The notes: generated by a model not told the origin, from the letters alone. Counted from the stretch's first letter, positions 43,475 to 58,172 are shown. The stretch is DNA of 64,000 nucleotides from Leptospiraceae bacterium (GCA_040217195.1 JAVJNR010000001.1:32001-96000); one strand, 5' to 3'. A program made the numbers and translations.

Positions 43475-46171
43475 ATGGCCAGCAAGGATCCATCGGACCG
43501 TTCAAATCCACGACCCAGGGGTACTTCCAGTAAAAAGGGCAAGTCCTCTAAAAAATCGGACCCGGTTCCATCCACCACCAGAAAGAAAGCCTCCATCGGC
43601 AAGTCGAAGACAGCTGCAGGAACCAAACCTGCTTCCGGCAAAAAAGCCAGATCGTCGGTGAATCAACCCGGTCCGCAGAAAAGTATTCGGAGTGGAAGAG
43701 CCATCCAGGGAGTTGTGGATGTTGAATCCTATCGGCAGGGTGTTTTTGATCCTCCGGAAGGAGTGGGTCTACTAAGCCGAGTTTTCTTTTTCTCCATAGG
43801 CGGAAAGCTTGAGAAACTGGCCCGGGGATCATTGCTTCGCGCCCTTGTTTTTACCGGCCTGGTCGGATCAGGAATTATCTTCTGTATCACATTTACCTTT
43901 GCAGATCCATTTCTGGTCTGGAACGATGCCGGTTACGATGAACCTTCTTCCCTTTACGGCGTAGGATTGGATGGAAAGCCAGAGCTTATTGCACGGTATG
44001 TGCGTAGCGACTCAGGTAGAGAGATCATTGATCTGAAAGAGGAAGATCTAAAACTTCCTGTGGCCCGAGCCTTTATTGCCACCGAAGACAACAATTTTGA
44101 AGACCACTGGGGTCTGGATTTATACGGTATAGCCCGTGCCGCTGTGGTGAACTTTCTGGCCGGCGGAATCAGGGAAGGGGCTTCAACAATCACACAGCAG
44201 GTGGCCCGTTTAAGATATTTAAGTCGGGAACGATCCATTGCGCGAAAGGCCCGGGAGGCCAGTCTGGCTCTTTTTCTGGAAGCTCGATTGCCCAAACATG
44301 AAATCCTGGAACTCTACTTTAATGAAGTGCCCCTGGGTCATGGCACAAACGGAGTGCAGGCAGCCAGTCAGTTCTACTTTGAAAAGGATTTCAGAGATCT
44401 GAACTGGGGCGAAGTGGCTGTTCTTTCTTCTTTAACCACCAGGCCCAATGATTTGAGCCCGCTAAAATATCCATCGGATTCAGCCCGAAAGATTCGTGTG
44501 GTCTTCCAGCGATTAATTGAAACCGGAATGATTACACCCCGGGATGCCACCGAAGCACACAATTACCTGGCTACTGAATACTATCCGTCTTTGTTTAACC
44601 GCTACCCGGATGAAAATTATTTTGGTGTGAGGACCAATCGATTTCCTTATGCTACTGCTTACGTACTGGATCAGCTTTCCAGTCGGCTACGTCGAAAAGT
44701 GTACACAGGTGGGTATCGCATTTACTCCACGATCAATGTACAGCATCAACAGGCTGCTGAAGATCAGATGATTCCCTGGCTGGAAAGGCTTAATGAAAGA
44801 CCCAAAAGGTCCGCTTTCAAGCGGTATGAAATATTTGATCGAGAAGCCGGGGATTTCATGCCCCTGGTTCAGAAACTGTTTGGGCTGCCTGATTATTCGG
44901 TGAAGCGTACCCGGGCGCAAAGAGATTTCTCTCTGGAGCTGGCCCGTAACTGGAGAAATGAATTTACAATGCTTAATCTCCTGACTGGAGGGGAGAATGT
45001 GGCTCGTGCTTTTGAAGAAGAGCTGAGAAGTTCCAACGAAAGCAATGATGATGACGATAAGGGCATTCAAGGAGCTTTAATCAGTCTCAGACCGGAGACA
45101 GGGGCCATTACTGCAGTGGTAGGTGGTACCGGCTTTGAATCCAGAAATCAGCTACTTCGCTTTGATTCTGCACAGAGGCAGCCAGGTAGCTCTTTTAAGC
45201 CAATTGTATATGCGGCTGGTATTGATTACACCGGCAGAAATCCAGGTGCAGACAGAAAATTGACTGCCAGCACGGTCCTGGATGATTCGCCACAGCACTG
45301 GTTATCCGCAGATTTATCCGAATACTCACCAGAGAATTACAGCGGAAGTTATATGGGCCCAATTCGAATGCGACCGGCACTGGTCCAGAGTCGCAATACA
45401 TGGGCCATCCAGGCATTCACTTATATGCAGCCAGCCAGATTGTTACCTGGTATTGCGGCCATAACTGGTGTGGCAGAAGATCAATTTCCCAGGAACGCTA
45501 CACTGGCTCTTGGCAGTAAAGAAATGACTCCTCTACAAATGGTTCAAGCCTATGCGGTGTTTGCATCCGGTGGTTACCGGGTTGAGCCTTACCTTATTCA
45601 GAGAATTGAGGACCGAAACGGAACAGTAATATATGAAACTGATCCGTCCGGTCAGAGAAAAGAGCGAATATTGCTGGAAGCCACTGTATTTATCATGACA
45701 TCGTTGCTCCAGGATGTGGTCCAGGAAGGCACCGGCACTGCAGCAAGACTCTACGGTCGACCGGCTGCAGGCAAAACTGGAACAACAGATAGATCCACCA
45801 ATGCCTGGTTCGTAGGCTATACGCCCAATCTTGTTACCGCTATATATATTGGTTATGATCGTAACATCAGTCTTGGTCGTTCCGGCACAGGTGGAGGCAT
45901 GGCTGCCCCCATCTGGGGAAGATATATGAACCGAGCTCTTGAAGGGGAGCCGGTTATGCGATTTCCAGGACCACCGGAAGGCGTTGTTCAAGCTACGGTT
46001 TGTGAAACTTCAGGCAAACGACCACTTCCTCAGTGTCCAAAAACTATTACGGAATATTTTATTCGAGGAACCGTTCCCGATGAACCATGTGATGCTCATT
46101 CGGTGGAAGGAACCTCACCGGTTATTATGCCGGAATCAACAGAGCCTGTTCTTGATGAGGATGACTTCTAA
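43475..46171 (+). CDS. Class A penicillin-binding protein (PBP1A)
   Basis: TEDNNF..HWG, GASTITQQ, RK.RE transglycosylase motifs; QPGSSFK, SRN, KTGT transpeptidase motifs; Lys-rich N-tail. Confidence 0.93.
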   Translation: MASKDPSDRSNPRPRGTSSKKGKSSKKSDPVPSTTRKKASIGKSKTAAGTKPASGKKARSSVNQPGPQKSIRSGRAIQGVVDVESYRQGVFDPPEGVGLLSRVFFFSIGGKLEKLARGSLLRALVFTGLVGSGIIFCITFTFADPFLVWNDAGYDEPSSLYGVGLDGKPELIARYVRSDSGREIIDLKEEDLKLPVARAFIATEDNNFEDHWGLDLYGIARAAVVNFLAGGIREGASTITQQVARLRYLSRERSIARKAREASLALFLEARLPKHEILELYFNEVPLGHGTNGVQAASQFYFEKDFRDLNWGEVAVLSSLTTRPNDLSPLKYPSDSARKIRVVFQRLIETGMITPRDATEAHNYLATEYYPSLFNRYPDENYFGVRTNRFPYATAYVLDQLSSRLRRKVYTGGYRIYSTINVQHQQAAEDQMIPWLERLNERPKRSAFKRYEIFDREAGDFMPLVQKLFGLPDYSVKRTRAQRDFSLELARNWRNEFTMLNLLTGGENVARAFEEELRSSNESNDDDDKGIQGALISLRPETGAITAVVGGTGFESRNQLLRFDSAQRQPGSSFKPIVYAAGIDYTGRNPGADRKLTASTVLDDSPQHWLSADLSEYSPENYSGSYMGPIRMRPALVQSRNTWAIQAFTYMQPARLLPGIAAITGVAEDQFPRNATLALGSKEMTPLQMVQAYAVFASGGYRVEPYLIQRIEDRNGTVIYETDPSGQRKERILLEATVFIMTSLLQDVVQEGTGTAARLYGRPAAGKTGTTDRSTNAWFVGYTPNLVTAIYIGYDRNISLGRSGTGGGMAAPIWGRYMNRALEGEPVMRFPGPPEGVVQATVCETSGKRPLPQCPKTITEYFIRGTVPDEPCDAHSVEGTSPVIMPESTEPVLDEDDF

Positions 46172-46456: not shown

Positions 46457-48514
46457 ATGGCAATGGGGCAGTTCCCAAAGAGTCCAAATAAAATCGACCC
46501 AACAGTTCCCAGCGCGGTGACTTCGCGTACCTCACTTGTATGGGAGGGTCGAAATAAGATCGCAGAATCAAAGAAAATTATCGATGATGCTGCGAATCGA
46601 GTAAAAGGGTTTGTACAGACTAAACTTCCGCCTGAGGTCCTGAAAGATGTGGATATCATGGCGAGTATCGAGGACAAGGTTTATAACTATGTAAACCAGG
46701 CCTATGTTAACATGTTCAATCGCTACACTGTAACGGTTGAAGATGAAATGGTGAAGAAGGTTCGTGATTTCATCGACAAAGAGGAATTGCGATCCCTGGC
46801 ACGTTACACTCCGCGTGAAATCGTGGAAGTGCTGGATAAGCTGGCCGGACCGGACAAGTTTAACACCGGTGAGATTGAAAAATCCATCGTAAACATGTAT
46901 GGTCACCTGCAAGGGCACATCCAGCGGGGCGTAAACGACCTTGAAAACGAAACTAACTCCATTCTTCGTCAGAAGACAGATGTGGGTGCTTTCGTTCGAG
47001 GTGAGAATGCCTACTCAATTGTGAAATGCGTTTTCAAAGACAATGCGTACAAGCCCAAGACTGTAACGGACATCAAACTCTCCATCAACATCCTGGACTC
47101 TGAGCTTATCAGTCCTATCTTTCACTATCAGACTACTGTAGAGTATCTGCTGAAAGATAACCTGGCCAATCACATTATGGAGCTGATTGACCGGGAGATT
47201 GAAGCTCTCAAAGAAGAGATCGTGGATAGTGGTCGGGCAGAATTGACCGACAACGAGGTGATGTTCGAGCGCATCAAGCTGGTGGATAAGTTCACTGATG
47301 ACAATATTTCTGATCCAAATTCTCGTCGTTACACGGTACTTGGTAAGAAATTTATCGATAAAATCGAGGGTCTGAGAGCTGAAATCGACCAGGAGGACTA
47401 TGATCCTCTGAACATGCGTGAGGCGATTAAAGAGATTATCGACTCAGAAAACATTCGAAACCGAGGTTTCAATACTGCAGTTAACACCCTGACTTCCATT
47501 CTGGATACGTCCAAGCTTGGTTATCAGGTATGCGACAACAAGAAGAATGCTCGCGACTGTTACATCCGAGAATACGAGGATGAAGATGAAACCCAGCTTC
47601 CGGATGAGAGATATTCAATCCGACTGGTGTATTTCGATCAAAGCCAGATTCGAGAACTGAAGCGTATCTTCGATACCAGAATGTCTGCTTTCATGCGAGA
47701 AGTGGATGCTGCGTGGGAAGTAGTGCATCAGATCTACGATCAGAAAAAATCCAAGTGGCTCGGTCTTAAGAAGACTGTGCTGGATTTTGAAGATCTGGCC
47801 AACAATGTAATGCCCAAGAAGTGGAACAAAGAGCGAAAAGAGCTCCACTCCGATCCAGATGAACTGAAATGGGATCATCTGAATTTCCGGGACACTACCA
47901 ACACCTTCGTAGAGAAGAATAACCGTACCTACACTGTAGAAACGCGAAACACTGCTCAGAAGATTCGCTACCTACGGGAAAAGCTGCAGGATATGTATGG
48001 TTACCAGAATCCGGTAGAACGAGTGGTTGTGGATGAGCGACTGACCATCCTGGAAAATCAATTCCACAAGTTCACTTACGAAATCAACCCGCACCATCTA
48101 CAGCCAGGTCTGTTGCTTGATGTGGATCTTGCTACCAGTAAGCGTAAGCAGTACATGCTCAAGGGCATGGCAAACGTTCTCAACGAATTCCTGCACGGGG
48201 TTTCTCGAGGATTCGCGGATGCAGCTTTTGCAACCTTCAAGCGTCGTCGATCCACTGTTCGTGGTGATGAAGAGATGTCTTTTGCCAGTCTGCCAGGTGG
48301 TGACGAAGGTCATCACGGTGGAGGCCACCATGGCGGAGATGATGAAGGCCATGCTCAATATGCAGCACCTTCAGCAGGGGGCGCCAATACGGACCCGGCT
48401 CCTTCGCCGTCGAGTTCCTCTGAAAGCTCCTCCGGCGGGGTAAAGGGATCAGCCGATGTGACTCCCAAGTCCTATGAGGATAAACTGAAAGACATGGGTC
48501 TTAAGGAACTTTAA
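46457..48514 (+). CDS. cfpA: Cytoplasmic filament protein CfpA
   Basis: Matches my recall of treponemal CfpA: PKSPN..P..PSAV.SR, NMFNRY..T.EDEM.KKVR, DKFNTGEIEKS.VNMYGHLQGHIQRGVN.LE, GAFVRGENAY; start re-called from GGAGG RBS. Confidence 0.9.
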   Translation: MAMGQFPKSPNKIDPTVPSAVTSRTSLVWEGRNKIAESKKIIDDAANRVKGFVQTKLPPEVLKDVDIMASIEDKVYNYVNQAYVNMFNRYTVTVEDEMVKKVRDFIDKEELRSLARYTPREIVEVLDKLAGPDKFNTGEIEKSIVNMYGHLQGHIQRGVNDLENETNSILRQKTDVGAFVRGENAYSIVKCVFKDNAYKPKTVTDIKLSINILDSELISPIFHYQTTVEYLLKDNLANHIMELIDREIEALKEEIVDSGRAELTDNEVMFERIKLVDKFTDDNISDPNSRRYTVLGKKFIDKIEGLRAEIDQEDYDPLNMREAIKEIIDSENIRNRGFNTAVNTLTSILDTSKLGYQVCDNKKNARDCYIREYEDEDETQLPDERYSIRLVYFDQSQIRELKRIFDTRMSAFMREVDAAWEVVHQIYDQKKSKWLGLKKTVLDFEDLANNVMPKKWNKERKELHSDPDELKWDHLNFRDTTNTFVEKNNRTYTVETRNTAQKIRYLREKLQDMYGYQNPVERVVVDERLTILENQFHKFTYEINPHHLQPGLLLDVDLATSKRKQYMLKGMANVLNEFLHGVSRGFADAAFATFKRRRSTVRGDEEMSFASLPGGDEGHHGGGHHGGDDEGHAQYAAPSAGGANTDPAPSPSSSSESSSGGVKGSADVTPKSYEDKLKDMGLKEL

Positions 48515-48537
48515 TTCCCCATGACCTCCGGGAAAAG

Positions 48538-48567
48538 GCCCGCATCCTACGATGCGGGCTTTTTTTT
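48538..48567 (+). terminator. Rho-independent terminator after cfpA
   Basis: GCCCGCATC-ctac-GATGCGGGC followed by T8. Confidence 0.9.
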
Positions 48568-48666
48568 GTAGTCCTAATGAGCCAGGTCCGTTTTTGGTTG
48601 AAGGATCTGTGATTTGTGCAAAATAAAGGCCTGCGGAGCCAAGGCTCCCATCTAGGAGATGTGCCA

Positions 48667-49614
48667 ATGAATCCCAAACTTTTTAGCTCTTTGAGTACGC
48701 GTACCAGCTTTAATAAAGTACTGCGTCACCTGGTAAGTGTATCCGGACTGATCGAAGCCATAGATAGAAATGAGAATCTGGCAGATCATCTCAACGGAAT
48801 GCTTGAGTCTGGACAGATCCAGAAGAACCAGGTTGGAGCCATTGTTAATGTTATTTTAAATAGTAGATTGCAGCTGCCCTTTCAGAGCAAGAATATGGAG
48901 GAGAGCATTTCTAGCTTTGTTCCTATTGTTACTTCCTTCTCTCGATGGAACGGAGTTTCTTTGACTCTAGTATACTATCATCCCACTCTAGGACAGCTAC
49001 TCGTTAATCCTGCCAATGAGGAGCACTGGGCTTCAGTGCAAGAGCTCAAAAAAGATGAACTGATTGTTGTATATGCTCGATCCAGGGATGGAAAACGCGA
49101 AACCGCTGAAAAAGCTCTAGAGGCTTTTTATCAACTACTGGCGGGAAAAGTACCGGAAGAAGCAGCAGGGTTTATCGACACCTCTGCTCCGGAGCCAAAG
49201 CCGGAGCCCAAACCTGCGGCTCAAGCGGCGCCTCAGCAGGCCGGCCCATCTGCCCAGAAGGCTGCAGCGCCGCCCACCGGGAAACGAAATATTACTCCCA
49301 AGTATTCTGTGCAGGTTACCAATGAGCTTTTCCACAATGGAAATGTGGAGGCCTGGAAAAACATTATTGAATCCTATGAAGCGAAGCATGCAGGAAACAA
49401 GGTAATTGTTTACCATGAAGGGGAACTGATTCAGGATTTGAATGCTCTTTTCAAATGGGGCAAGGTCAAGCATGGAGGGATCATCATGTTTCAGGTGGCC
49501 GGAGCACAGATCAAAGGTGTGAGCCGCTTGCAAAAATACCTGCATGAAGGTGCTTCTTCCAGGTTTGAATCATTTATGAAGCATGACATGAACAAAGTGC
49601 TGAATCTGTTTTAG
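48667..49614 (+). CDS. CfpA-associated protein with Pro/Ala linker and putative HPr-like C-terminal domain
   Basis: AGGAG RBS at 48654; N-domain, PEPKPEPKPAAQ linker, then YSVQVTNELFHNGNVEAWK...VIVYHEG...KHGGIIMFQVAG. Confidence 0.8.
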   Translation: MNPKLFSSLSTRTSFNKVLRHLVSVSGLIEAIDRNENLADHLNGMLESGQIQKNQVGAIVNVILNSRLQLPFQSKNMEESISSFVPIVTSFSRWNGVSLTLVYYHPTLGQLLVNPANEEHWASVQELKKDELIVVYARSRDGKRETAEKALEAFYQLLAGKVPEEAAGFIDTSAPEPKPEPKPAAQAAPQQAGPSAQKAAAPPTGKRNITPKYSVQVTNELFHNGNVEAWKNIIESYEAKHAGNKVIVYHEGELIQDLNALFKWGKVKHGGIIMFQVAGAQIKGVSRLQKYLHEGASSRFESFMKHDMNKVLNLF

Positions 49615-49634
49615 GAGGTGCCGAAGTTTAGAGT

Positions 49635-50360
49635 ATGTTTTCTGAACATTTTGCCCGCCAGACCGATGAGCTCAAAGGAGCCCTTGATAAACGCCTTACG
49701 GCTCGTGGTACAGCCGCGTTACCAGGTAAGGAAAAGGACCTCCGGATCTATAAAGAGTTCTATGAATATGTCAGGGATTTATTGCCCCCCTTGTTTTCTG
49801 TGGGGATGGGAAAGGTTCGAAGCAAGAAGCATGTTCTAAATCGTACGGTAGATCTAATCATATTCCAGAAATGGTGTAAGCGATTTCTGGATCTAACAGG
49901 TGGATACGTTCTGGCAGATCAGATCTTTGCTTTCGGAAGTATGGAAACGGATCTGGAAACCAGGCATATTTACAATCACTCTTCCATTACGGAAGCAGTG
50001 AAGACATTGTATGCACAGGATGCAGAGTTGGAAGAGAATGATCTGGTACCATGCTTTTCCATCCTGCTTTCCTTCAAATCTTCGATTCCGCTGCTTTCTC
50101 ATAAGAAGGCTCTGGAGGACATCGCTGTGGAGAAGGATATTGCATTGAATAGAGAGACAGACCTGGTTTGTGTGCTGGGTCAGGGGATCATTGTTAAGGA
50201 CTGGGAAAACCAGGGAGCCTTCAAGGTCATTGAAACCGGGGAGGACACTCTGATGTGGCTATACATTCTGTTACTCGAATATCTTGACAGAGATGGAAAC
50301 CTGGGCTTTGATCCAAGAGACTATATAAAAGAAAACAAAGATTACAGAGAGTATAGCTAA
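49635..50360 (+). CDS. DUF6602-like protein (restriction-endonuclease-like fold, apparently degenerate)
   Basis: VRDLLPPLFSVGMGKV...VDLIIF pattern; the expected EVK position reads SME; later DLVCVLGQG. Confidence 0.55.
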   Translation: MFSEHFARQTDELKGALDKRLTARGTAALPGKEKDLRIYKEFYEYVRDLLPPLFSVGMGKVRSKKHVLNRTVDLIIFQKWCKRFLDLTGGYVLADQIFAFGSMETDLETRHIYNHSSITEAVKTLYAQDAELEENDLVPCFSILLSFKSSIPLLSHKKALEDIAVEKDIALNRETDLVCVLGQGIIVKDWENQGAFKVIETGEDTLMWLYILLLEYLDRDGNLGFDPRDYIKENKDYREYS

Positions 50361-51544
50361 TGGGGGCCAATTTGAATGGCAAAGGGAAAACCTTAATCAG
50401 GTTTGCAGTATTTTTTCTACTAATCGGCCTGACTCAGTGCGGAGAGGAAGGTCGAGATTTTTACATGGTCATGGATACATCCGGATCCATGTCATCGGGC
50501 ACAATGGATGATGTGCACAAATCTCTGCCGCAAATCACTGATCTTCTAAAGAAAGGGGACCGGGTGCACCTGGTGCGATTTGATGAGTCCGCCTATCTGG
50601 AAAAGTCCATAGATATTGAAGGGGACCTGGATAAAGCCGAGGTGCTGAGCTGGGTAGACAAGCTTAAAGCGAAAGGTCGCTACACGGACATTGCCGTGAT
50701 GCTGCAATCCCTGAAGAAGATTCAGGCCGAGAACACTCCAGAAGGCAGAAAGTCATTTTTCATAGTCTTGAGTGATGGAAAAGACGATCCCGCGCCTGAT
50801 TCCAGATCGGACAGAATCAATCTGAAGGATTTTGAAGCCACGGATGCTCCTCCAGGACCCAAAAAAAGCTTTGTATACTACATCAGTCTGGGACCGGAAA
50901 AGAGCAAAGAACTGGAAGAGGGTCTAAAGGGAATCAGTCCAGATGTAAAAACCGTTGATACTTCCAGGCAGAATAAGCCCGGTACAGACGGACAAACGGC
51001 TGCCACCGGCGACGGAGATCAAGGCCAGAACGCTATGGATACCACCCGGGATGGTCCTATCGACCTTTCCGGCGCAGCCGAAGATATTGAAGAAAAATCT
51101 TCAAGCGTCTGGGATGGTCTCTGGAACAAGATCAGGGCTAACTGGAAATGGGTTGCAGGTGGCCTGGCTGCTCTACTGGCCCTGCTACTTTTAATCTGGC
51201 TGCGGATTCGTGGCAAGCGAGCCCACGTCTTAAAAGGGCAGCTTCACTTCTGGGAAGCCAGTACTCATCCGGATCTAGGTAAAACTGTGCGACTGAACAA
51301 GCTGGCCGGTAAAAAAGTGACCGTGGGAGAGAAGCCAGGAAGCAAGATACGAATTAAAGACCTGGGAGCAAGCCAGGTAGTTCTAAAAGGAACAACTAAA
51401 AAGGGAATACCCGTCCTGAAACCTGCGGGAGCAAAGGGCATTGAATTCTCTTCGCAAAAGACAAAAGGGATGATTTCTCCAGGAGATTCATTCCAACTGG
51501 GAAACTATAAATTCGAGTACAAAGATGGCAACGAAAAGGGATAG
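50360..51544 (+). CDS. vWA-domain membrane protein with C-terminal FHA-like cytoplasmic domain
   Basis: Signal/lipobox-like LTQC; MIDAS DTSGS...T...LSDG; TM WVAGGLAALLALLLLIW; ending PGDSFQLGNYKFEY. Confidence 0.8.
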   Translation: MGANLNGKGKTLIRFAVFFLLIGLTQCGEEGRDFYMVMDTSGSMSSGTMDDVHKSLPQITDLLKKGDRVHLVRFDESAYLEKSIDIEGDLDKAEVLSWVDKLKAKGRYTDIAVMLQSLKKIQAENTPEGRKSFFIVLSDGKDDPAPDSRSDRINLKDFEATDAPPGPKKSFVYYISLGPEKSKELEEGLKGISPDVKTVDTSRQNKPGTDGQTAATGDGDQGQNAMDTTRDGPIDLSGAAEDIEEKSSSVWDGLWNKIRANWKWVAGGLAALLALLLLIWLRIRGKRAHVLKGQLHFWEASTHPDLGKTVRLNKLAGKKVTVGEKPGSKIRIKDLGASQVVLKGTTKKGIPVLKPAGAKGIEFSSQKTKGMISPGDSFQLGNYKFEYKDGNEKG

Positions 51545-54110
51545 AAAATTACCTTCGGAATATCGTGGTCCAGAAAGGGCCTTTCAATTCGATCGCGATA
51601 CCTTTCTGATATATACGGGCATCCACGATGCGGACATGCGTCCGTTTTCGCGGATTGGTGCGGGAACTTCCGTACCGGCAGGACTGCTTCCGCAGATCGA
51701 GAACGTAGTCGTTCCGGAAGAAAATCTGTGGAATGTAGGTCTGGAGGCTGCCTGGCTTAAAGAGTCTCTTGCAGCCGGGTCCGGACATATTCGCTACGTG
51801 GGCTCCAAAGAGAGGACCACTCAGCTACATCGGTATCTGGATCCAAACGAGGATGAAATGTCCGGGTCCAAAGAGGATGCCGGTAATGATCCAGTGGAAT
51901 ATTCCTCCTATTCGGCTCCGGAAAAAGGGGTGTCTCAGAAAGACCGATGCACCATTACCTATATGGCCACCGGTGAATACCAGGTGACTGTGGGAGGCTC
52001 CAGAGTGCTGGACTCTCAATCCCTGAGCCGAGGGCGTATGGGCCTGGACCGGGAGTATGAACAGGTAAACAAGATTCTGTCCAAGCAAGGTCGACGGATG
52101 GAGCATGGTTGGTCCTTCTTTCCTCTGCAAACCGATGGAGATATGCTATCTGTGTACTGGGGTCTGCAGGGTAAAGGTCTGGCTCTTAACCCTCCTGTAG
52201 ATGTCCATTATCACTTCCTGGCAAATGCAATTGATCCAGAAAGACTGCAGATGGTTATTGCAGAAACGGCCGAATTACCCGGGCTTGCAGAGCAGTTTCG
52301 CAGAAACAATACACTGGAACGCCAATTCGGTGCTTATTGCCCGGAAATGGAAAGAATCATTCATCTAAAGCGGATGTATAATCGGGCTCAGGTGAAGACT
52401 TTCGATGATTCCAGAACCCTGCCATTCTCTAAAGAGACTGTATTCTTCTGCTCTCGATCCAAGAGTCATGGTGCTTTCGCGATGAAGGCAAATCCGGAAG
52501 CGGAATACCCGATGCAGATCATCTTTCCACTGCAAAAGGGCAAACAATCCCGCTCCTTCGATTTTACCAAAGGGCCTTTTGACCTAGAAATCATGCGCCT
52601 TGAGGAAGGGCAAAAGTTCGAAGGAGCCGGCTCCTATCTCACATTGATAGGTCGAGGTCATGCTTCGCCAAAGAAATTTAGCAAGTCTAAACTAAAAGGA
52701 GCAGCTTTTCCTCTACTGTCCGGAAGCGAATACAGGCTGCAGCAAATTGTAAATCTGTCCAATCTGGCCGATGAACTGTCCCTGGGCCTGAAGGGTAGTG
52801 AATTCGAACAAACCGTGCCGGAGCTACTGTCTCTGATGGGCCAGAGTGGCCCGAACCTGGATGAAGAGGCGGTACTGGATCTGCTTTATCGAATTCGAAC
52901 CCAGGCAGTCCCGGATAACATTCTGCTTCGAATTAATCTAGGGGAAGCCACTCGTGCAGTCCATAGTTACCTGGGTACTCTGAAGGATAAGTTCCCAAAA
53001 GTGGCCAAACTGTCCGAGAAGGTTTTCAAACGCTATTCAACCGATAAACTCAAGGTCCGAGACCTGGAAGCTCTGGAAGGGGCGGTGGCCTTTGATGTAT
53101 ATGCGGTACAGGCTCGAATCAGCATTCTGCAAGTTCGTCCGGTGCATGCACCTCGAATTGCCATTGTATTCCCTCCGGAAATCGATACTATCAAGGCCGA
53201 GCAAAAGGAATACAGGAAGTATCTAAAGGAACAGAACCGTATTCTGGACAAAGGCGACGAGTCTCCTTCGGAGCGAGCCACACTGGAGTTTCTAGAGAAG
53301 CTACTGGAAGAGAGACTGCATCTTGCAGAAGAAAGGGAACGGCTGGGTGATCTGCTCCAGGATCTGGATTTATCGGGGCCGGTGGAAGACAAGGGTGATC
53401 TCCCTTTCCACATGAAGCTGCCTTACTGGTTACGAAGAACCTTCGAATTCCTGCGAATTCCAGAATTCGTTGAATGGGTGAAAGGCCTGTTCGGTGGAGG
53501 CAGCAATCGAGAAAAGGGATCTCTGACAACCGGGCTGTCTGCCTGGCTACTGATTCCTCTGGCGGCGGTTTTGCTTGGACTACTCGGGTTGGGCCTGTAT
53601 GCGACCACTGATAATGAGACCGGAGAGAATTCGGTGGTAACCATGGTCAAAGGCTGGTTCTCCAGCGATGAGGCACCTGAATCTGAGGATCCGCTATATC
53701 TCACAGACTCCTCTTCCACAGATCCGGGAACACCCGAGGTTGCTGGACTGGATCCAGCCCTGAGCATTGCCGCTCCAGGAGGCATCCAGGAGAATCGAAC
53801 TGTTCCGGGAGAAGAGGATGTTCAGGTCACAGATCAGGAAGTCTTCCAGTTCTCCAATCTTCTGGCTCGAAGAAATGGGTTTGCGGCCCTGCGTGAACAA
53901 GACCCGGATCTGAGAAATCCGGACCTGGTCTTTCCGGGAGATCGATTGAACCTGCCGGATGGAAGAATCCTGCAGATTACTCCAGGAGAATATATCTGGG
54001 AGATATCAAGGAAGCAGTATAGAAAAGATATGGCCAGACTGCAAATCCTGGATCGGCAGGTGCGAAACCTGGGCCAGGAGTATCAAAAAAAAAAGAGCCT
54101 GATGTCCTGA
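51525..54110 (+). CDS. Large single-pass membrane protein with C-terminal LysM-like segment; possible -1 frame extension to 54211
   Basis: About 670-aa N-region with coiled coil, TM (AWLLIPLAAVLLGLLGLGLY), NPDLVFPGDRLNLP and PGEYIWEISRKQY. Confidence 0.75.
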   Translation: MATKRDRKLPSEYRGPERAFQFDRDTFLIYTGIHDADMRPFSRIGAGTSVPAGLLPQIENVVVPEENLWNVGLEAAWLKESLAAGSGHIRYVGSKERTTQLHRYLDPNEDEMSGSKEDAGNDPVEYSSYSAPEKGVSQKDRCTITYMATGEYQVTVGGSRVLDSQSLSRGRMGLDREYEQVNKILSKQGRRMEHGWSFFPLQTDGDMLSVYWGLQGKGLALNPPVDVHYHFLANAIDPERLQMVIAETAELPGLAEQFRRNNTLERQFGAYCPEMERIIHLKRMYNRAQVKTFDDSRTLPFSKETVFFCSRSKSHGAFAMKANPEAEYPMQIIFPLQKGKQSRSFDFTKGPFDLEIMRLEEGQKFEGAGSYLTLIGRGHASPKKFSKSKLKGAAFPLLSGSEYRLQQIVNLSNLADELSLGLKGSEFEQTVPELLSLMGQSGPNLDEEAVLDLLYRIRTQAVPDNILLRINLGEATRAVHSYLGTLKDKFPKVAKLSEKVFKRYSTDKLKVRDLEALEGAVAFDVYAVQARISILQVRPVHAPRIAIVFPPEIDTIKAEQKEYRKYLKEQNRILDKGDESPSERATLEFLEKLLEERLHLAEERERLGDLLQDLDLSGPVEDKGDLPFHMKLPYWLRRTFEFLRIPEFVEWVKGLFGGGSNREKGSLTTGLSAWLLIPLAAVLLGLLGLGLYATTDNETGENSVVTMVKGWFSSDEAPESEDPLYLTDSSSTDPGTPEVAGLDPALSIAAPGGIQENRTVPGEEDVQVTDQEVFQFSNLLARRNGFAALREQDPDLRNPDLVFPGDRLNLPDGRILQITPGEYIWEISRKQYRKDMARLQILDRQVRNLGQEYQKKKSLMS

Positions 54111-54220
54111 ACCGGATCAAGGCATTAATAAACGTGATGGATCGGCTGGCCGTTACCGAGCGTATGCGCAATCTGCAAAATCAGACTGCCCGGTACGCCC
54201 GGTCCCTCTGAATCCCCGAG

Positions 54221-54415
54221 TCAGGAATTCCCTTGAGAGTTATTTTCAACCAATTGAATGATATCGTCTATGAAGACTCTGTGCTCCACAAGCATGCCAT
54301 GGAGCCTTTGATGTTGTCCGCTGTTAATAAGTCCAGTTACAAGTTCGCCCAGATGTTTTCGTATAATTGCATCATGCTGGCTGGCTTCATCCTGAGATTG
54401 ACTTTCCGGTTGCAT
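54221..54415 (-). CDS. Small hypothetical protein
   Basis: Amphipathic helical 64-aa ORF that fills the gap between the extended upstream gene and the cyclase. Confidence 0.4.
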   Translation of the reverse strand: MQPESQSQDEASQHDAIIRKHLGELVTGLINSGQHQRLHGMLVEHRVFIDDIIQLVENNSQGNS

Positions 54416-54489
54416 ACATCTAATCATCGGCAGAAGCGCACATTGAAAAGTATTTTTCTAAACGATTCCAGCCTGGAAAGGTGCCAACC

Positions 54490-55542
54490 ATGACTGTTTC
54501 CGAACTGGATCGACTGAAGCAGGAGAATGAAAAGCTCCTGGAGACCCTGGAAGTAAACCGCGTGGTCTCTTCCAGTTTGAATCTGGAAGTGGTGCTTGGA
54601 ACCTTGATGGAAAAGGCCAAGACACTCCTGGAAGCAGAAGCATCCAGCTTGATGATGGTCGATGATGAGGTGCAGGAGCTGTATTTTCATACCGTCCGTG
54701 GCGAAAAGAGCGATGCGGTGCGCAAAATTCGACTGAAAATGGGAGAAGGCATAGCTGGATGGGTGGCCCATGAAGGAAAACCTGTGCTGGTGCCTGATTG
54801 CTCCCAGGACCCCAGGTTCTATAAGCGGGCGGACCAGCTTACGGAATTTGTAACGCGCAGTATGATGTGTGTACCTCTGAAAGCCAGGAAGCGAATCATC
54901 GGCACCGTGCAGGTCTTAAATAAGACAGGCGAAAGGCAATTCGATGAATGGGATTTGAAGATATTTGAAGTGATGGCCGATCAGGCTGCTGTGGCCATTG
55001 ACAACGCCAGATTACATGAAATGGCCACTGTGGATGCCATGACCGGCCTTTACATGAAAGCGTATTTCCTTGCAAGGCTGGATGATGAGGTAAAGAGATT
55101 CAAAAACCAGGGAGTCCCTGTGGCGCTGCTGATGAGCGACATTGATCATTTTAGAGTGGTGAACAATGAATACGGTCATCAGGCTGGAGATGCGGCTCTG
55201 GTGGAACTGGCACAGGTTATTCTGGATACGGTACATGAGCTGGGCGGTGAGGATATGGCCGGCCGTTATGGCGGTGAAGAATTCTGTGTACTTCTGCCTG
55301 AAACCGGTCCAGAGCGGGCCATGGAAGTGGCCGAAAGGATCAGGAAAAACATCGAATCCAGGCCCATACCGATTGACGGCAAGGATGTGCACATTACCAT
55401 CTCCATCGGAGTTTCATGCCTGCCTGAGCATAGAGACCATTTGCAGGTATCCGAGGATATGGTTAAGTTTGCGGACGAAGCACTTTATATCTGCAAGGAC
55501 AACGGACGAAATTGTGTTGCCCTGTATGAACAACGGAATTGA
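54490..55542 (+). CDS. GAF-GGDEF diguanylate cyclase
   Basis: GAF (GEGIAGWV, RSMMCVPL, NK), DAMTGL, DIDHF..VN..YGH..GD, RYGGEEF. Confidence 0.93.
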   Translation: MTVSELDRLKQENEKLLETLEVNRVVSSSLNLEVVLGTLMEKAKTLLEAEASSLMMVDDEVQELYFHTVRGEKSDAVRKIRLKMGEGIAGWVAHEGKPVLVPDCSQDPRFYKRADQLTEFVTRSMMCVPLKARKRIIGTVQVLNKTGERQFDEWDLKIFEVMADQAAVAIDNARLHEMATVDAMTGLYMKAYFLARLDDEVKRFKNQGVPVALLMSDIDHFRVVNNEYGHQAGDAALVELAQVILDTVHELGGEDMAGRYGGEEFCVLLPETGPERAMEVAERIRKNIESRPIPIDGKDVHITISIGVSCLPEHRDHLQVSEDMVKFADEALYICKDNGRNCVALYEQRN

Positions 55543-55574
55543 AATAAAAGATCATTTTGCGATAGGAGATAGAC

Positions 55575-58172
55575 ATGCCTGATTTTTATCCATTTAGCCA
55601 GAAGGGATGCACAAACGACGAAGAAGTCTGGGAAAAGTCCGGACGCCGTGGACAGCGAGCCTTTGAGCTGGCAGCCATGGGCCTTCCCATCGTCCCCGGT
55701 TTTGTACTGGATTCTGGACTCACCCCTAACATGGCCAGTACGAACCTGGCCCCCATAGTTAAAGAAGGTGTTGGTGCCATCGAAGAGGGAATCGGCCGAA
55801 AGTTTGGCGATATTTCCAATCCATTGCTGGTGAAGGTAGTTGTAAGCTCCAATCTGAGCCTGCCCATCTATCCCACAGTATTTAACATAGGTCTGTCCCC
55901 TGTAACCATGGCTGGCTTTGCATCATTGATTGGCGAAAAGTCTGCCTGGTTCGAGTATTGCTATCTTCTGCGAACTGCAGGAACGAAAATCTATGATATT
56001 GAAGCAGCCCGATTTGATGAAATCCAGAAGAAATATCCGGATACCGTAGAAGGGCTGAAATCCTGTGCTCAGGAAATGCTCGGTCTGGTTGGCAAAGATA
56101 ATATTCCCGACGACCCGTTGGAGCAACTGGCAGTAATCTGTAAGAACCTGGCCAAGCGCTATTATGATCCAGAAATGGATTCTGAAGATCCGGCAGCCCT
56201 GATAGTACAGGGAATGGTATTCGGCAATCTGGGCGAAGATTCTGCAGTGGGTATGTACAATACTCGCAACATCGTATCCGGTGACAATAACCTGGATGGA
56301 AGCTTCCTTCGCAATGTTTACACCCTGGAAAAGAAAGGGGACGATATCCATCAACTGGATTCTGCCTATCTGGACGAGCTAAAGAATATTGGCTCATCTC
56401 TGGAGAAGAAGTTCCGGGAAATCCGAGAAGTTAAATTTATCATCGAAAAGAAGAAGCTATGGCTTCTGAATCAAACCACAGTAGATCGAAAGTCCACTCA
56501 GGCTCATCTGCGAACCTTACTGGATCTTCTGAAAGAGGGTGTTGTAGAAGAGAAATGGGTCGTGGAGCAAATCCCTCCTGGTCAGCTGGCTACGCTTCTA
56601 CACTCCGTTGTGGATCCTGAGACCATGGAAAAGATGCCCACCATTGCCGGTGGACTTACCGGTGCTCCAGGAGCGGCAGTTGGTCGAGTATTCTTTACTG
56701 CAGACCGATTGATGGAGGTACATCGTGAGGCGATTCAAAAAGGTGAGGATACACGTCTTATTCTTGTTGTTTCTGCCTCCTATGCAGAGGACGTAAAGGC
56801 CATCGAAGTGGGCCAGGGTGTAATATCCAATGAAGGTGGATATTCGTCCCACGCTCCTGTAGTGTCCCGATCTCTAGGAAAAGTGAGTATTGTTCAGCCT
56901 GAGATGAAGATCGGAGCTGATTACCTGGAAATTGACGGCCATCGCATCAATGAAGGTGATTACGTAACCATGGATGCGCCGGTTTACAAGGCTCCTACCC
57001 TGGGAATTGGAAAGGCAGATCTGATCAGTCCAGATATCCATACAAATGGACTGGTAGAGTTCATTGCCATAGTTAAGAAATACATCACAGACGATTTTCT
57101 GGTTCGTGCAAATGCCGACCTGGGCCGGGATGCCAGGACAGCCAAAACCATGGGTGCCTATGGAATCGGGCTGTGTCGTACCGAGCACATGTTCTTTGCA
57201 GAAGATCGTATTCAGAGATTCCGGGAAATGATTCTCTCCAAAACCGAGGAAGAGAGACTGAAGGCTCTGGAAGACCTGCGGCCCATGCAAAAGCAGGACT
57301 TTACAGACCTTTTTGCTACTATGGCTCCTCATCATGTAACCATTCGATTACTGGATGCTCCTTTGCATGAATTCCTGCCACGCAGTGAAGATACTTTGAA
57401 CGATTATCTGAAGTATCTATCTAACAAAGGTGCCACCGCAGATAAGAAAGAAATCGAAGAGAGAATTGAAAGACTTCATGAATTCAATCCGATGCTGGGA
57501 CACCGAGGATGTCGAGTAGCGGTAACGTATCCGGAAATCTATCATATGCAGGTTAAGGCTATCTTTGAGGCAGCCTGCGAACTCAAGAAGCAGGGAACAG
57601 ATATCATTCCTGAAATCATGATTCCTATTGTGATGAACCCCAATGAGCTGAAGTTTATCAAAAACGGAAAGGTCATCGAGGGTAAATCGATCAAGGGGAT
57701 TCGAGATATTGCCAAAGAGGTCTTCACGTCCATGGGAATCGAAGTGCCTTATAAAGTTGGAACAATGATTGAGCTGCCTGCAGCCGGTCTGCTTTCCGAT
57801 GACCTGGCCCAGTATGCAGAATTCTTTAGCTACGGAACCAATGACCTGACCCAGACTACCTTCGGTTTAAGCCGGGATGATGCTAACTCCTTCTTCCCTG
57901 CTTATACAGAGTTTGACCTACTGGCAAACAATCCATTCCAGGTGCTGGGTAAGCCAGTTAAGGAATTGATTGGTATTTCTGCGGAACGGGGGCGGATTGT
58001 TCGACCGGACTTGAAGCTGGGTCTTTGCGGCGAGCATGGAGCCGATCCGGAAAACATTGAATTTTGCGTGGAAGCCGGACTGGATTACGTATCCTGCTCT
58101 GCTTACAGTGTGCCCATCGCATTGCTCTCTGTGGCTCAGCTCAATCTCAAGCGCGAAGCAGAAGCGAAATAG
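55575..58172 (+). CDS. Pyruvate phosphate dikinase-like PEP-utilising protein with degenerate nucleotide-binding domain
   Basis: Intact GGYSSHA (His426), GIGLCRTEHMF, IRLLD, NPMLGHRGCR, GTMIE, GTNDLTQ, GLCGEHG; ATP-grasp motifs substituted. Confidence 0.88.
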   Translation: MPDFYPFSQKGCTNDEEVWEKSGRRGQRAFELAAMGLPIVPGFVLDSGLTPNMASTNLAPIVKEGVGAIEEGIGRKFGDISNPLLVKVVVSSNLSLPIYPTVFNIGLSPVTMAGFASLIGEKSAWFEYCYLLRTAGTKIYDIEAARFDEIQKKYPDTVEGLKSCAQEMLGLVGKDNIPDDPLEQLAVICKNLAKRYYDPEMDSEDPAALIVQGMVFGNLGEDSAVGMYNTRNIVSGDNNLDGSFLRNVYTLEKKGDDIHQLDSAYLDELKNIGSSLEKKFREIREVKFIIEKKKLWLLNQTTVDRKSTQAHLRTLLDLLKEGVVEEKWVVEQIPPGQLATLLHSVVDPETMEKMPTIAGGLTGAPGAAVGRVFFTADRLMEVHREAIQKGEDTRLILVVSASYAEDVKAIEVGQGVISNEGGYSSHAPVVSRSLGKVSIVQPEMKIGADYLEIDGHRINEGDYVTMDAPVYKAPTLGIGKADLISPDIHTNGLVEFIAIVKKYITDDFLVRANADLGRDARTAKTMGAYGIGLCRTEHMFFAEDRIQRFREMILSKTEEERLKALEDLRPMQKQDFTDLFATMAPHHVTIRLLDAPLHEFLPRSEDTLNDYLKYLSNKGATADKKEIEERIERLHEFNPMLGHRGCRVAVTYPEIYHMQVKAIFEAACELKKQGTDIIPEIMIPIVMNPNELKFIKNGKVIEGKSIKGIRDIAKEVFTSMGIEVPYKVGTMIELPAAGLLSDDLAQYAEFFSYGTNDLTQTTFGLSRDDANSFFPAYTEFDLLANNPFQVLGKPVKELIGISAERGRIVRPDLKLGLCGEHGADPENIEFCVEAGLDYVSCSAYSVPIALLSVAQLNLKREAEAK

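Follow-up and report, generated by a model that had tools for sequence, protein, structure and literature searches.

A candidate PEP-driven phosphohistidine relay encoded with the cytoplasmic filament gene cfpA in spirochaetes

We analysed a 64,000-nucleotide stretch of the genome of a Leptospiraceae bacterium (GCA_040217195.1, JAVJNR010000001.1:32001-96000; the window) and found that its gene for the cytoplasmic filament protein CfpA belongs to a three-gene core that recurs across Spirochaetota. The other two members are the gene at 48667 (here X), which encodes a TP0747-family protein with two predicted HPr folds, and a PPDK paralogue; together they make up the core cfpA-X-PPDK. Judged by its residues, the paralogue is a PPDK homologue that has lost its nucleotide site and kept its PEP and His sites. 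We give a little better than an even chance to an Enzyme I-like relay, in which phosphate would pass from PEP to His426 of the paralogue and on to His223 of the TP0747-family protein, in the service of the CfpA filament. A broader proposal is tentative and has the balance of probability against it: that in spirochaetes possessing cytoplasmic filaments a dedicated phosphohistidine relay, fed by PEP and derived from PPDK independently of the PTS, controls the filament, and that a pseudo-RNase Z/LysM membrane protein and other dead enzymes are its long-sought anchors and bridges.

An ORF check of positions 46457 to 58172 confirmed the claim of the first-pass annotation that seven genes lie here on one strand (plus), three of them overlapping; coordinates and strand agreed, as did both overlaps, a single nucleotide at 50360 (TAATG) and 20 nt at 51525-51544. 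The cfpA gene (46457..48514, 685 aa) starts with the ATG at 46457, has the ribosome-binding sequence GGAGG in front, and was correctly named in the same annotation, its product scoring 869.6 bits against NCBIfam NF040882 (cut-off, 500). Between cfpA and X, on the same strand, lies an intrinsic-terminator-like hairpin with a U-tract (48529..48568; -27.9 kcal/mol; z, -5.72; equalled in stability by 0 of 200 shuffles), which was absent from the list of a consensus terminator scan. Because of this strong hairpin and of a 371-nt gap between the 51525 ORF and the following cyclase gene, the run is probably not a single transcript. A promoter scan of the locus gave 11 sites versus 13.5 in shuffles and thus no excess. 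RNA-run contigs (one run) cover cfpA, the vWA gene, the 51525 gene and the paralogue, and such contigs cannot show transcription or co-transcription. Among the fetched loci, the seven-gene order is typical of the window's own family; the closest named relatives of the window's genome are Leptonemataceae and Leptospiraceae MAGs, in the order of Leptospira.

To follow the core across the phylum, we surveyed 401 Spirochaetota genomes. cfpA was present in 148 of them and the 48667 protein in 145, and the paralogue clade comprised at least 141 members (140 matches of at least 579 bits among the best 150 matches listed, plus a shortened copy in the complete genome G347, leaving out broken copies in six draft genomes). 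The co-occurrence that the first-pass annotation had offered as a check on its proposal was evident: of the 150 genomes with one or more of the three genes, at least 138 had the full set, a count that overstates the number of events because kin genomes are not independent. In 65 cfpA-centred loci picked to span families, the order cfpA-X-PPDK was intact and adjacent in 60, and the X-PPDK pair lay away from cfpA in 5; the paralogue directly followed X in 64 of 66 X loci. Neither cfpA nor X was found in family f2 (0/75), by kinship apparently the Leptospira family, or in family f17 (0/38), and family f19 had cfpA in 14 and X in 13 of its 50 genomes. The core genes are thus absent jointly, both from whole families and within f19; they are jointly present and jointly absent even where unlinked, and their linkage outlasts reshuffling of the other genes of the locus. 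Homologue searches also returned a protein named as Lambdaproteobacteria, from outside Spirochaetota. A CfpA fusion among the representatives (P0379) was rejected as an artefact, being a gene model of an animal genome.

The cfpA gene of Treponema pallidum presumably adjoins a hypothetical gene, ppdK and a vWA-protein gene, as the first-pass annotation had stated. This order fits the 1.14-Mb genome G102, which has the gene order expected for T. pallidum TP0746-TP0750. The Pfam family name TP_0747_N agrees with the T. pallidum order as well, and the gene names in an excerpt of a T. pallidum source (PMC8525777) are consistent with it.

The paralogue (55575..58172, plus strand; TP0746 clade) has the full three-domain length of PPDK and matches solved PPDKs with an E value of 7e-156. 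It nevertheless falls short of the PPDK family TIGR01828 (675.6 bits; cut-off, 843.45), and its PPDK_N match (16.2 bits) lies below the cut-off of 27, whereas PF02896 (PEP-utilizers_C) and PF00391 (mobile His domain) are above theirs. A Pfam search found no match to PF05524, the helical HPr-binding domain of Enzyme I, and the score against Enzyme I (TIGR01417) was 102.5 bits, below the cut-off of 341.7. In a tree, the 65 paralogues separate from eight canonical spirochaete enzymes; the printed support of 0.415 belongs to the rooting node, and we do not rely on it.

We compared the residues of these 65 paralogues with those of the eight canonical PPDKs, using the numbering of Clostridium symbiosum PPDK. 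At the equivalents of R92, D321, E323 and R337, which we take to be ATP-grasp catalytic residues, the window's paralogue has V89, E285, K287 and T302. Throughout the clade, the R92 equivalent is V or I (65/65) and the E323 equivalent is K or R (62/65), D321 survives in 4 and R337 in 1 of the 65, and the K22 equivalent is R. In Flaveria PPDK, Arg95 and Glu324 take a direct part in binding ATP (PMC5507339, excerpt). The equivalents of His455, R561, R617, E745, N768, D769 and C831 are kept in all 65 paralogues; the phospho-His equivalent of the window's copy is His426 (codon 56850-56852). The regulatory Thr is replaced by Ser (51/65) or Ala (14/65), and a barrel insertion, GKKIEG, is specific to the clade. 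What had been noted for a single protein, a phospho-His and PEP domain kept and an ATP site lost, is therefore borne out across the 65 paralogues.

The first-pass annotation had called the product of X (48667..49614, plus strand) HPr-like. This holds for the fold and, in the model, for the position of a His, but not at the level of sequence, and the protein appears to have two HPr folds rather than one. It had no match in the local Pfam or NCBIfam; a newer Pfam assigns it to PF27497 (TP_0747_N). An AF2 model (pLDDT, 88.7) places a helical N terminus before a first HPr fold (residues 70-161, with no His at the phospho-site position), a linker and a second HPr fold (residues 210-300), with strands and helices in HPr order. 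In this predicted model, domain 1 aligned with HPr over 80 residues (Z, 8.6; rmsd, 2.0), and its five best matches among 48,161 chains were all HPr or NPr. Domain 2, likewise as predicted, aligned with residues 1 to 85 of HPr 1ka5 over 82 residues (Z, 6.6; rmsd, 2.6), and most HPr chains fit the His-less domain 1 better than the His-bearing domain 2. At the sequence level, no PF00381 (HPr) match was found, a profile-profile comparison of both domains with 31 spirochaete HPr sequences yielded nothing (probability under 10%), a PDB sequence search with the family alignment returned matches at chance level only, and no longer, fused forms were found (weak search evidence).

The His of domain 2, His223 (codon 49333-49335), stands just before helix 224-240 and caps the first helix of the fold in the model; the alignment of residues 210-300 on HPr 1-85 gives it the position of His15, where helix 1 begins. 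All 69 aligned sequences share His223 and the invariant stretch FHNGNVEAW around it, and 93 of the 97 distant representatives that cover the site have the His as well. Arg17 has a role in HPr; its equivalent here, two residues after His223, is Gly, and the register of Ser46 is ambiguous. When residues 1-500 of the paralogue were modelled in complex with the TP0747-family protein, the score was 0.05 (mark, 0.32), which we count neither for nor against an interaction.

We propose that the paralogue may be a dedicated PEP:protein phosphotransferase built from PPDK. PEP would phosphorylate His426 with release of pyruvate; the residues are present, and the chemistry is extrapolated from PPDK and Enzyme I, which have a common PEP domain and His geometry (PMC5371819, excerpt). 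With the nucleotide-site residues lost, the phosphate could presumably not go on to AMP or ATP and would be handed to the second HPr fold, at His223, the His-less first fold acting as a putative docking module. The phosphorylation state would then follow the PEP/pyruvate ratio and, as the gene linkage suggests, could control the assembly, bundling or attachment of CfpA. Several observations count against this relay: the His-bearing domain resembles HPr moderately in structure (Z, 6.6) and not visibly in sequence, the Arg17 equivalent is Gly, His223 is missing in 4 of the 97 distant representatives, and the paralogue is without the HPr-binding helical domain of Enzyme I.

The rival that survives best, which we nonetheless judge unlikely, takes the paralogue and the TP0747-family protein for structural partners of the filament ("bridging"), a sensor or scaffold without protein-to-protein transfer. 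PEP binding or autophosphorylation would only switch the conformation of the paralogue, and His223 would be an interface or metal residue. The same core linkage data fit this arrangement, the locus is rich in enzyme folds without catalytic residues, as expected of scaffolds, and conservation around His223 goes far beyond what an HPr would require; the four distant members without His223 and the lack of an Enzyme I docking domain point the same way. Chance, however, hardly explains why a His should occupy the exact HPr phospho-site of a protein encoded beside an enzyme that has kept its phospho-His but lacks any other acceptor site. This rival also has to contend with G347, in which X overlaps the gene for a 586-aa paralogue that has no ATP-grasp domain and keeps the His and PEP motifs, the pair being separate from cfpA. 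This natural case (one genome) indicates that the X-paralogue pair can outlast the ATP-grasp domain.

Somewhat less probable again is a remodelled metabolic enzyme, whose old ATP-grasp pocket would bind another acceptor (a small phosphorylated metabolite or a nucleotide) and which would convert PEP to pyruvate in metabolism, its tie to the filament being no more than docking or shared regulation. The N domain bears on this in both directions. It is the least conserved part of the paralogue (mean, 0.58 versus 0.72 to 0.74) and is the part deleted in G347, but 49 of its 326 positions are conserved in at least 90% of the paralogues, several of them as new basic residues; this suggests a retained ligand site and argues against a simply dead ATP-grasp domain. 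Where the nucleotide used to bind, the clade has conserved residues of its own (R25, K87, H103, R284, K/R287 and K306), in favour of a remodelled enzyme. Genomic context is similarly divided. Genes for phosphoglycerate kinase and for pyruvate:ferredoxin oxidoreductase neighbour the cassette in 28 and 19 fetched loci, respectively (overlapping and kin), and T. pallidum ppdK is highly transcribed according to the excerpt of PMC8525777. In G102, neither a pyruvate kinase nor a canonical PPDK was found, so the paralogue might be needed metabolically there; this genome has GTP-PEPCK and Enzyme I, however, as other PEP exits. A second PPDK-like gene is present in most carriers (among the matches listed, in 125 of the 141 genomes with the paralogue, 8 of them checked residue by residue), and the window's genome encodes elsewhere a canonical PPDK, two pyruvate kinases, Enzyme I, HPr and HprK; the PPDK regulatory kinase (PF03618) was not found in this genome, which is 93.7% complete. 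A metabolic enzyme would also leave the HPr-like partner unexplained.

We hold it to be quite improbable that X and the paralogue do form a relay but one without any bearing on the filament, their linkage to cfpA being an inherited gene order: the terminator-like hairpin between cfpA and X and the five loci with the pair apart would suit this, but the joint presence and absence with cfpA even where the genes are unlinked and the persistence of the linkage through reshuffling would not. An ordinary, divergent PPDK can practically be dismissed, for despite the full three-domain length, the close match to solved PPDKs and the ppdK annotation in T. pallidum (PMC8525777, excerpt), the paralogue is below the TIGR01828 cut-off, has its nucleotide-site residues replaced throughout the clade and shares its genome with a canonical paralogue.

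Alongside the candidate relay, the locus encodes possible membrane partners of the filament. The first-pass annotation had proposed that the membrane proteins anchor it; this gains support for the 51525 protein (51525..54110, plus strand), but that protein is missing from the Treponema-type family. Its residues 1 to 415 were modelled by AF2 (pLDDT, 86.1) as a tandem metallo-beta-lactamase (MBL) fold with a Foldseek match to RNase Z/ELAC2 (E, 1.3e-6), and a structural comparison (Z, 15.0; rmsd, 3.0; 203 residues aligned) likewise places it in the MBL fold. The metal motif HxHxDH is absent in 38 members of the family, one unaligned chance pattern apart. A helical region, a membrane helix near residue 673 (by hydropathy) and a LysM-like tail follow; LysM (PF01476) was detected in 6 of 38 orthologues, the window's copy having only a weak SafA/LysM-type match. 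The earlier label of LysM-like membrane protein thus stands as to the helix and the LysM of some orthologues, but most of the protein is a dead MBL double fold. A PDB sequence search with its alignment gave chance-level matches only, and no Pfam family matches the combination of MBL, membrane helix and LysM.

The 51525 family occurs in 126 of the 401 genomes, 122 of which have cfpA, which makes the protein a candidate anchor. Of the four remaining carriers, one is 71% complete, one has a contig that ends at X and the paralogue, and two are the cfpA-negative genomes described below in which a contig ends at the NucC-like/vWA pair. Since the gene adjoins cfpA or the paralogue in only 18 of 65 loci and lies elsewhere, often far away, in the rest, its co-occurrence with cfpA is independent of linkage. 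It is not a universal anchor, because searches of the 148 genomes with cfpA left 26 without a copy, every one of the 14 from family f19 among them, and because the copies of five close relatives are without the membrane and LysM part. We rate anchoring of filaments by this protein at slightly under an even chance; it would be a likely membrane or peptidoglycan anchor in most lineages outside the Treponema-type families.

At the 3' end of the same gene (54085..54211, plus strand), an A10 run in A_AAA_AAG phase comes with a conserved -1-frame C-terminal extension of the 51525 protein; four assemblies share both the run and the extension. In the -1 frame of the extension, 27 of 44 variable sites fall at third codon positions. 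Runs of at least 10 A/T number only five in the 4.6-Mb genome, and a short-read contig spans the A10 run without a gap. We regard it as a candidate programmed frameshift or slippage site.

The 50360 gene (50360..51544, plus strand) was rightly described as encoding a vWA membrane protein: the product has a vWA domain with a MIDAS-type DxSxS (Pfam VWA and alignment) and one strong membrane helix near residue 265 (by hydropathy), a topology in which the vWA domain would be exported. Its C-terminal domain is FHA/YscD-like by structure (TM, 0.64 to 0.66). The vWA-TM-FHA gene immediately precedes cfpA in 27 of 65 loci, and full-length copies were found in 5 of 30 further cfpA-positive versus 0 of 30 cfpA-negative genomes.

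Next to it, the 49635 protein (49635..50360, plus strand) has no Pfam match itself, but DUF6602 is matched in 37 of 47 orthologues, in keeping with the earlier DUF6602-like assignment. Over its N-terminal 130 residues, its profile matches NucC structures (best E, 6e-11). The active-site motif of NucC is IDx30EAK (10.1101/694703, excerpt); here the motif Asp (D73) is kept in 47 of 47, whereas the ExK columns are variable and ExK is absent. The columns of the cAAA-binding Arg53 and Tyr81 appear not to be conserved (approximate mapping), and no CBASS-type cyclase was found among the conserved neighbours of the locus. The protein is probably a pseudo-nuclease of NucC-like fold. Full-length NucC-like copies were present in 14 of 55 hand-picked cfpA-positive and 2 of 62 cfpA-negative genomes, and in both of the latter the contig breaks off at the NucC-like/vWA pair, just where cfpA would come next. 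We consider the NucC-like and vWA-TM-FHA proteins lineage-limited neighbours of the core, where they may act as accessories.

The 54481 gene (54481..55542, plus strand) encodes a GAF-GGDEF diguanylate cyclase, as first annotated, with Pfam GAF and GGDEF matches, an intact GGEEF and metal/GTP-binding motif and no RxxD site; it scores below the DgcA equivalog cut-off (NCBIfam). Within the window's family, 12 fetched loci have this gene in front of the paralogue; it was next to the paralogue in no other family examined. In four cases the paralogue had moved away from X, and the cyclase moved along in one of them. GAF proteins behind the paralogue in family f46 were discarded as GAF-SpoIIE proteins, not cyclases. 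The suggestion that c-di-GMP provides a second input to the filament system is weakened by this confinement to the window's family; we consider it improbable and regard the cyclase as a passenger at the locus.

Tomography of treponemal filaments (Izard 2004) reportedly revealed bridging and anchoring components, for which the locus names concrete candidates. Loss of cfpA in Treponema denticola leads to filamentation, chromosome condensation and loss of infectivity (PMC3398590, excerpt), which is why regulators of CfpA matter. Cytoplasmic tubule bundles under the flagella of Leptonema illini (PMC3746420, excerpt) would fit the cfpA gene of a Leptonema-related family. If true, a phosphohistidine relay from PEP level to cytoskeleton would put PTS-type chemistry to a new purpose. 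On sequence grounds, T. pallidum ppdK (TP0746), which has been read as glycolytic, probably cannot make ATP and would not be a normal dikinase; this reading would change the metabolic map of T. pallidum, where pyruvate kinase was looked for and not found. As the first-pass annotation had anticipated, our literature search found no description of a cfpA-X-PPDK system, and TP0747 was not mentioned in the literature found on the subject; PMC1665464 and PMC5556012 contributed nothing further. The original cfpA papers (You 1996; Izard 1999, 2001 and 2004) may discuss neighbouring genes. Our analysis adds the gathering of all parts on one strand, the accessory folds and the phylum-wide co-occurrence.

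Among the closest known systems is Enzyme I/HPr of the PTS (also EI-Ntr/NPr), with the same PEP barrel, phospho-His domain and HPr-fold partner and a His at the His15 position. Unlike Enzyme I, the putative donor here is of PPDK ancestry, and in place of the helical domain that binds HPr it retains a dead ATP-grasp domain; unlike HPr, the partner consists of two HPr folds with no sequence-level HPr match; and unlike in the PTS, no EII gene lies in the conserved neighbourhood, and the canonical Enzyme I and HPr sit apart in the genome. PPDK itself (TIGR01828; 1dik, 1vbg and 5jvn) shares the three-domain layout and the His and PEP/pyruvate site with the paralogue, in which the nucleotide-site residues and the regulatory Thr are replaced and GKKIEG is inserted. 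The Treponema cfpA locus (TP0746 ppdK, TP0747, TP0748 cfpA, TP0750 vWA and TP0751) has the same core order, as seen in G102 and relatives, but its short vWA gene lies in divergent orientation, and searches turned up neither MBL-LysM nor NucC-like genes there, whereas the window's family has all parts on one strand. The 49635 protein resembles NucC, a CBASS effector nuclease, in its N-terminal profile and catalytic Asp but has lost ExK, and the 51525 protein shares the tandem MBL-type fold of long-form RNase Z/ELAC2 but not its metal motif. FimV and HubP are LysM-anchored scaffolds, and the 51525 protein likewise has a single membrane helix and a LysM-like tail.

We compared gene content around the cassette formed by cfpA, gene X (the TP0747-family protein) and the PPDK paralogue. 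A 182-aa protein without a Pfam family was found, using a single query, in 28 of 40 cfpA-positive genomes (one match being partial) versus 1 of 40 cfpA-negative genomes. Its gene adjoins the cassette in 16 fetched loci (e.g., L089:13945-14493, minus strand); the copy in the window's own genome is at C3:232731-233396. The protein is a candidate further partner. Genes for a MinD/ParA-type ATPase and a DnaJ-domain protein each adjoin the cassette in 16 loci (L034 to L038, L052, L099, L100, and kin) and are of interest because cfpA mutants show a chromosome phenotype. Upstream of cfpA in the window lies a class A penicillin-binding protein gene (43475-46171), also found 5' of cfpA in 13 related loci of the window's family. 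In NCBI records, many CfpA homologues (P0143, P0145, P0147, and others) bear the name "cytochrome C oxidase subunit II", which is a propagated misannotation.

In locus L098 of the complete genome G347 (G347:C1:2400000-2419990), the paralogue that X overlaps is missing the entire ATP-grasp domain, and the pair lies 160 kb from a divergent cfpA. In another complete genome (G332, L099), a frameshift splits X just 5' of the His motif. The paralogue N-domain carries approximately 100 additional residues in families f21, f30, and f7, whereas in f19 part of the copies are extended at length at the C-terminus; none of these segments (loci L046, L047, L050, L051, and L057 to L059) matched Pfam. In the 1.14-Mb genome G102 (L045), which has the T. 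pallidum-type core order, we found neither pyruvate kinase nor canonical PPDK; GTP-PEPCK and Enzyme I are present.

The 51525 ORF, encoding the membrane protein with a LysM-like tail, ends at an A10 run in A_AAA_AAG phase followed by a -1-frame extension (together window 54085-54211; loci L118, L120, and L121). In L125 and L128 the same gene is interrupted at different A/T runs. Across four assemblies the extension is conserved, with differences mainly at third positions. The A10 site is a candidate for programmed frameshifting or transcriptional slippage, and the C-terminal helix encoded past it in the -1 frame is in frame in intact relatives.
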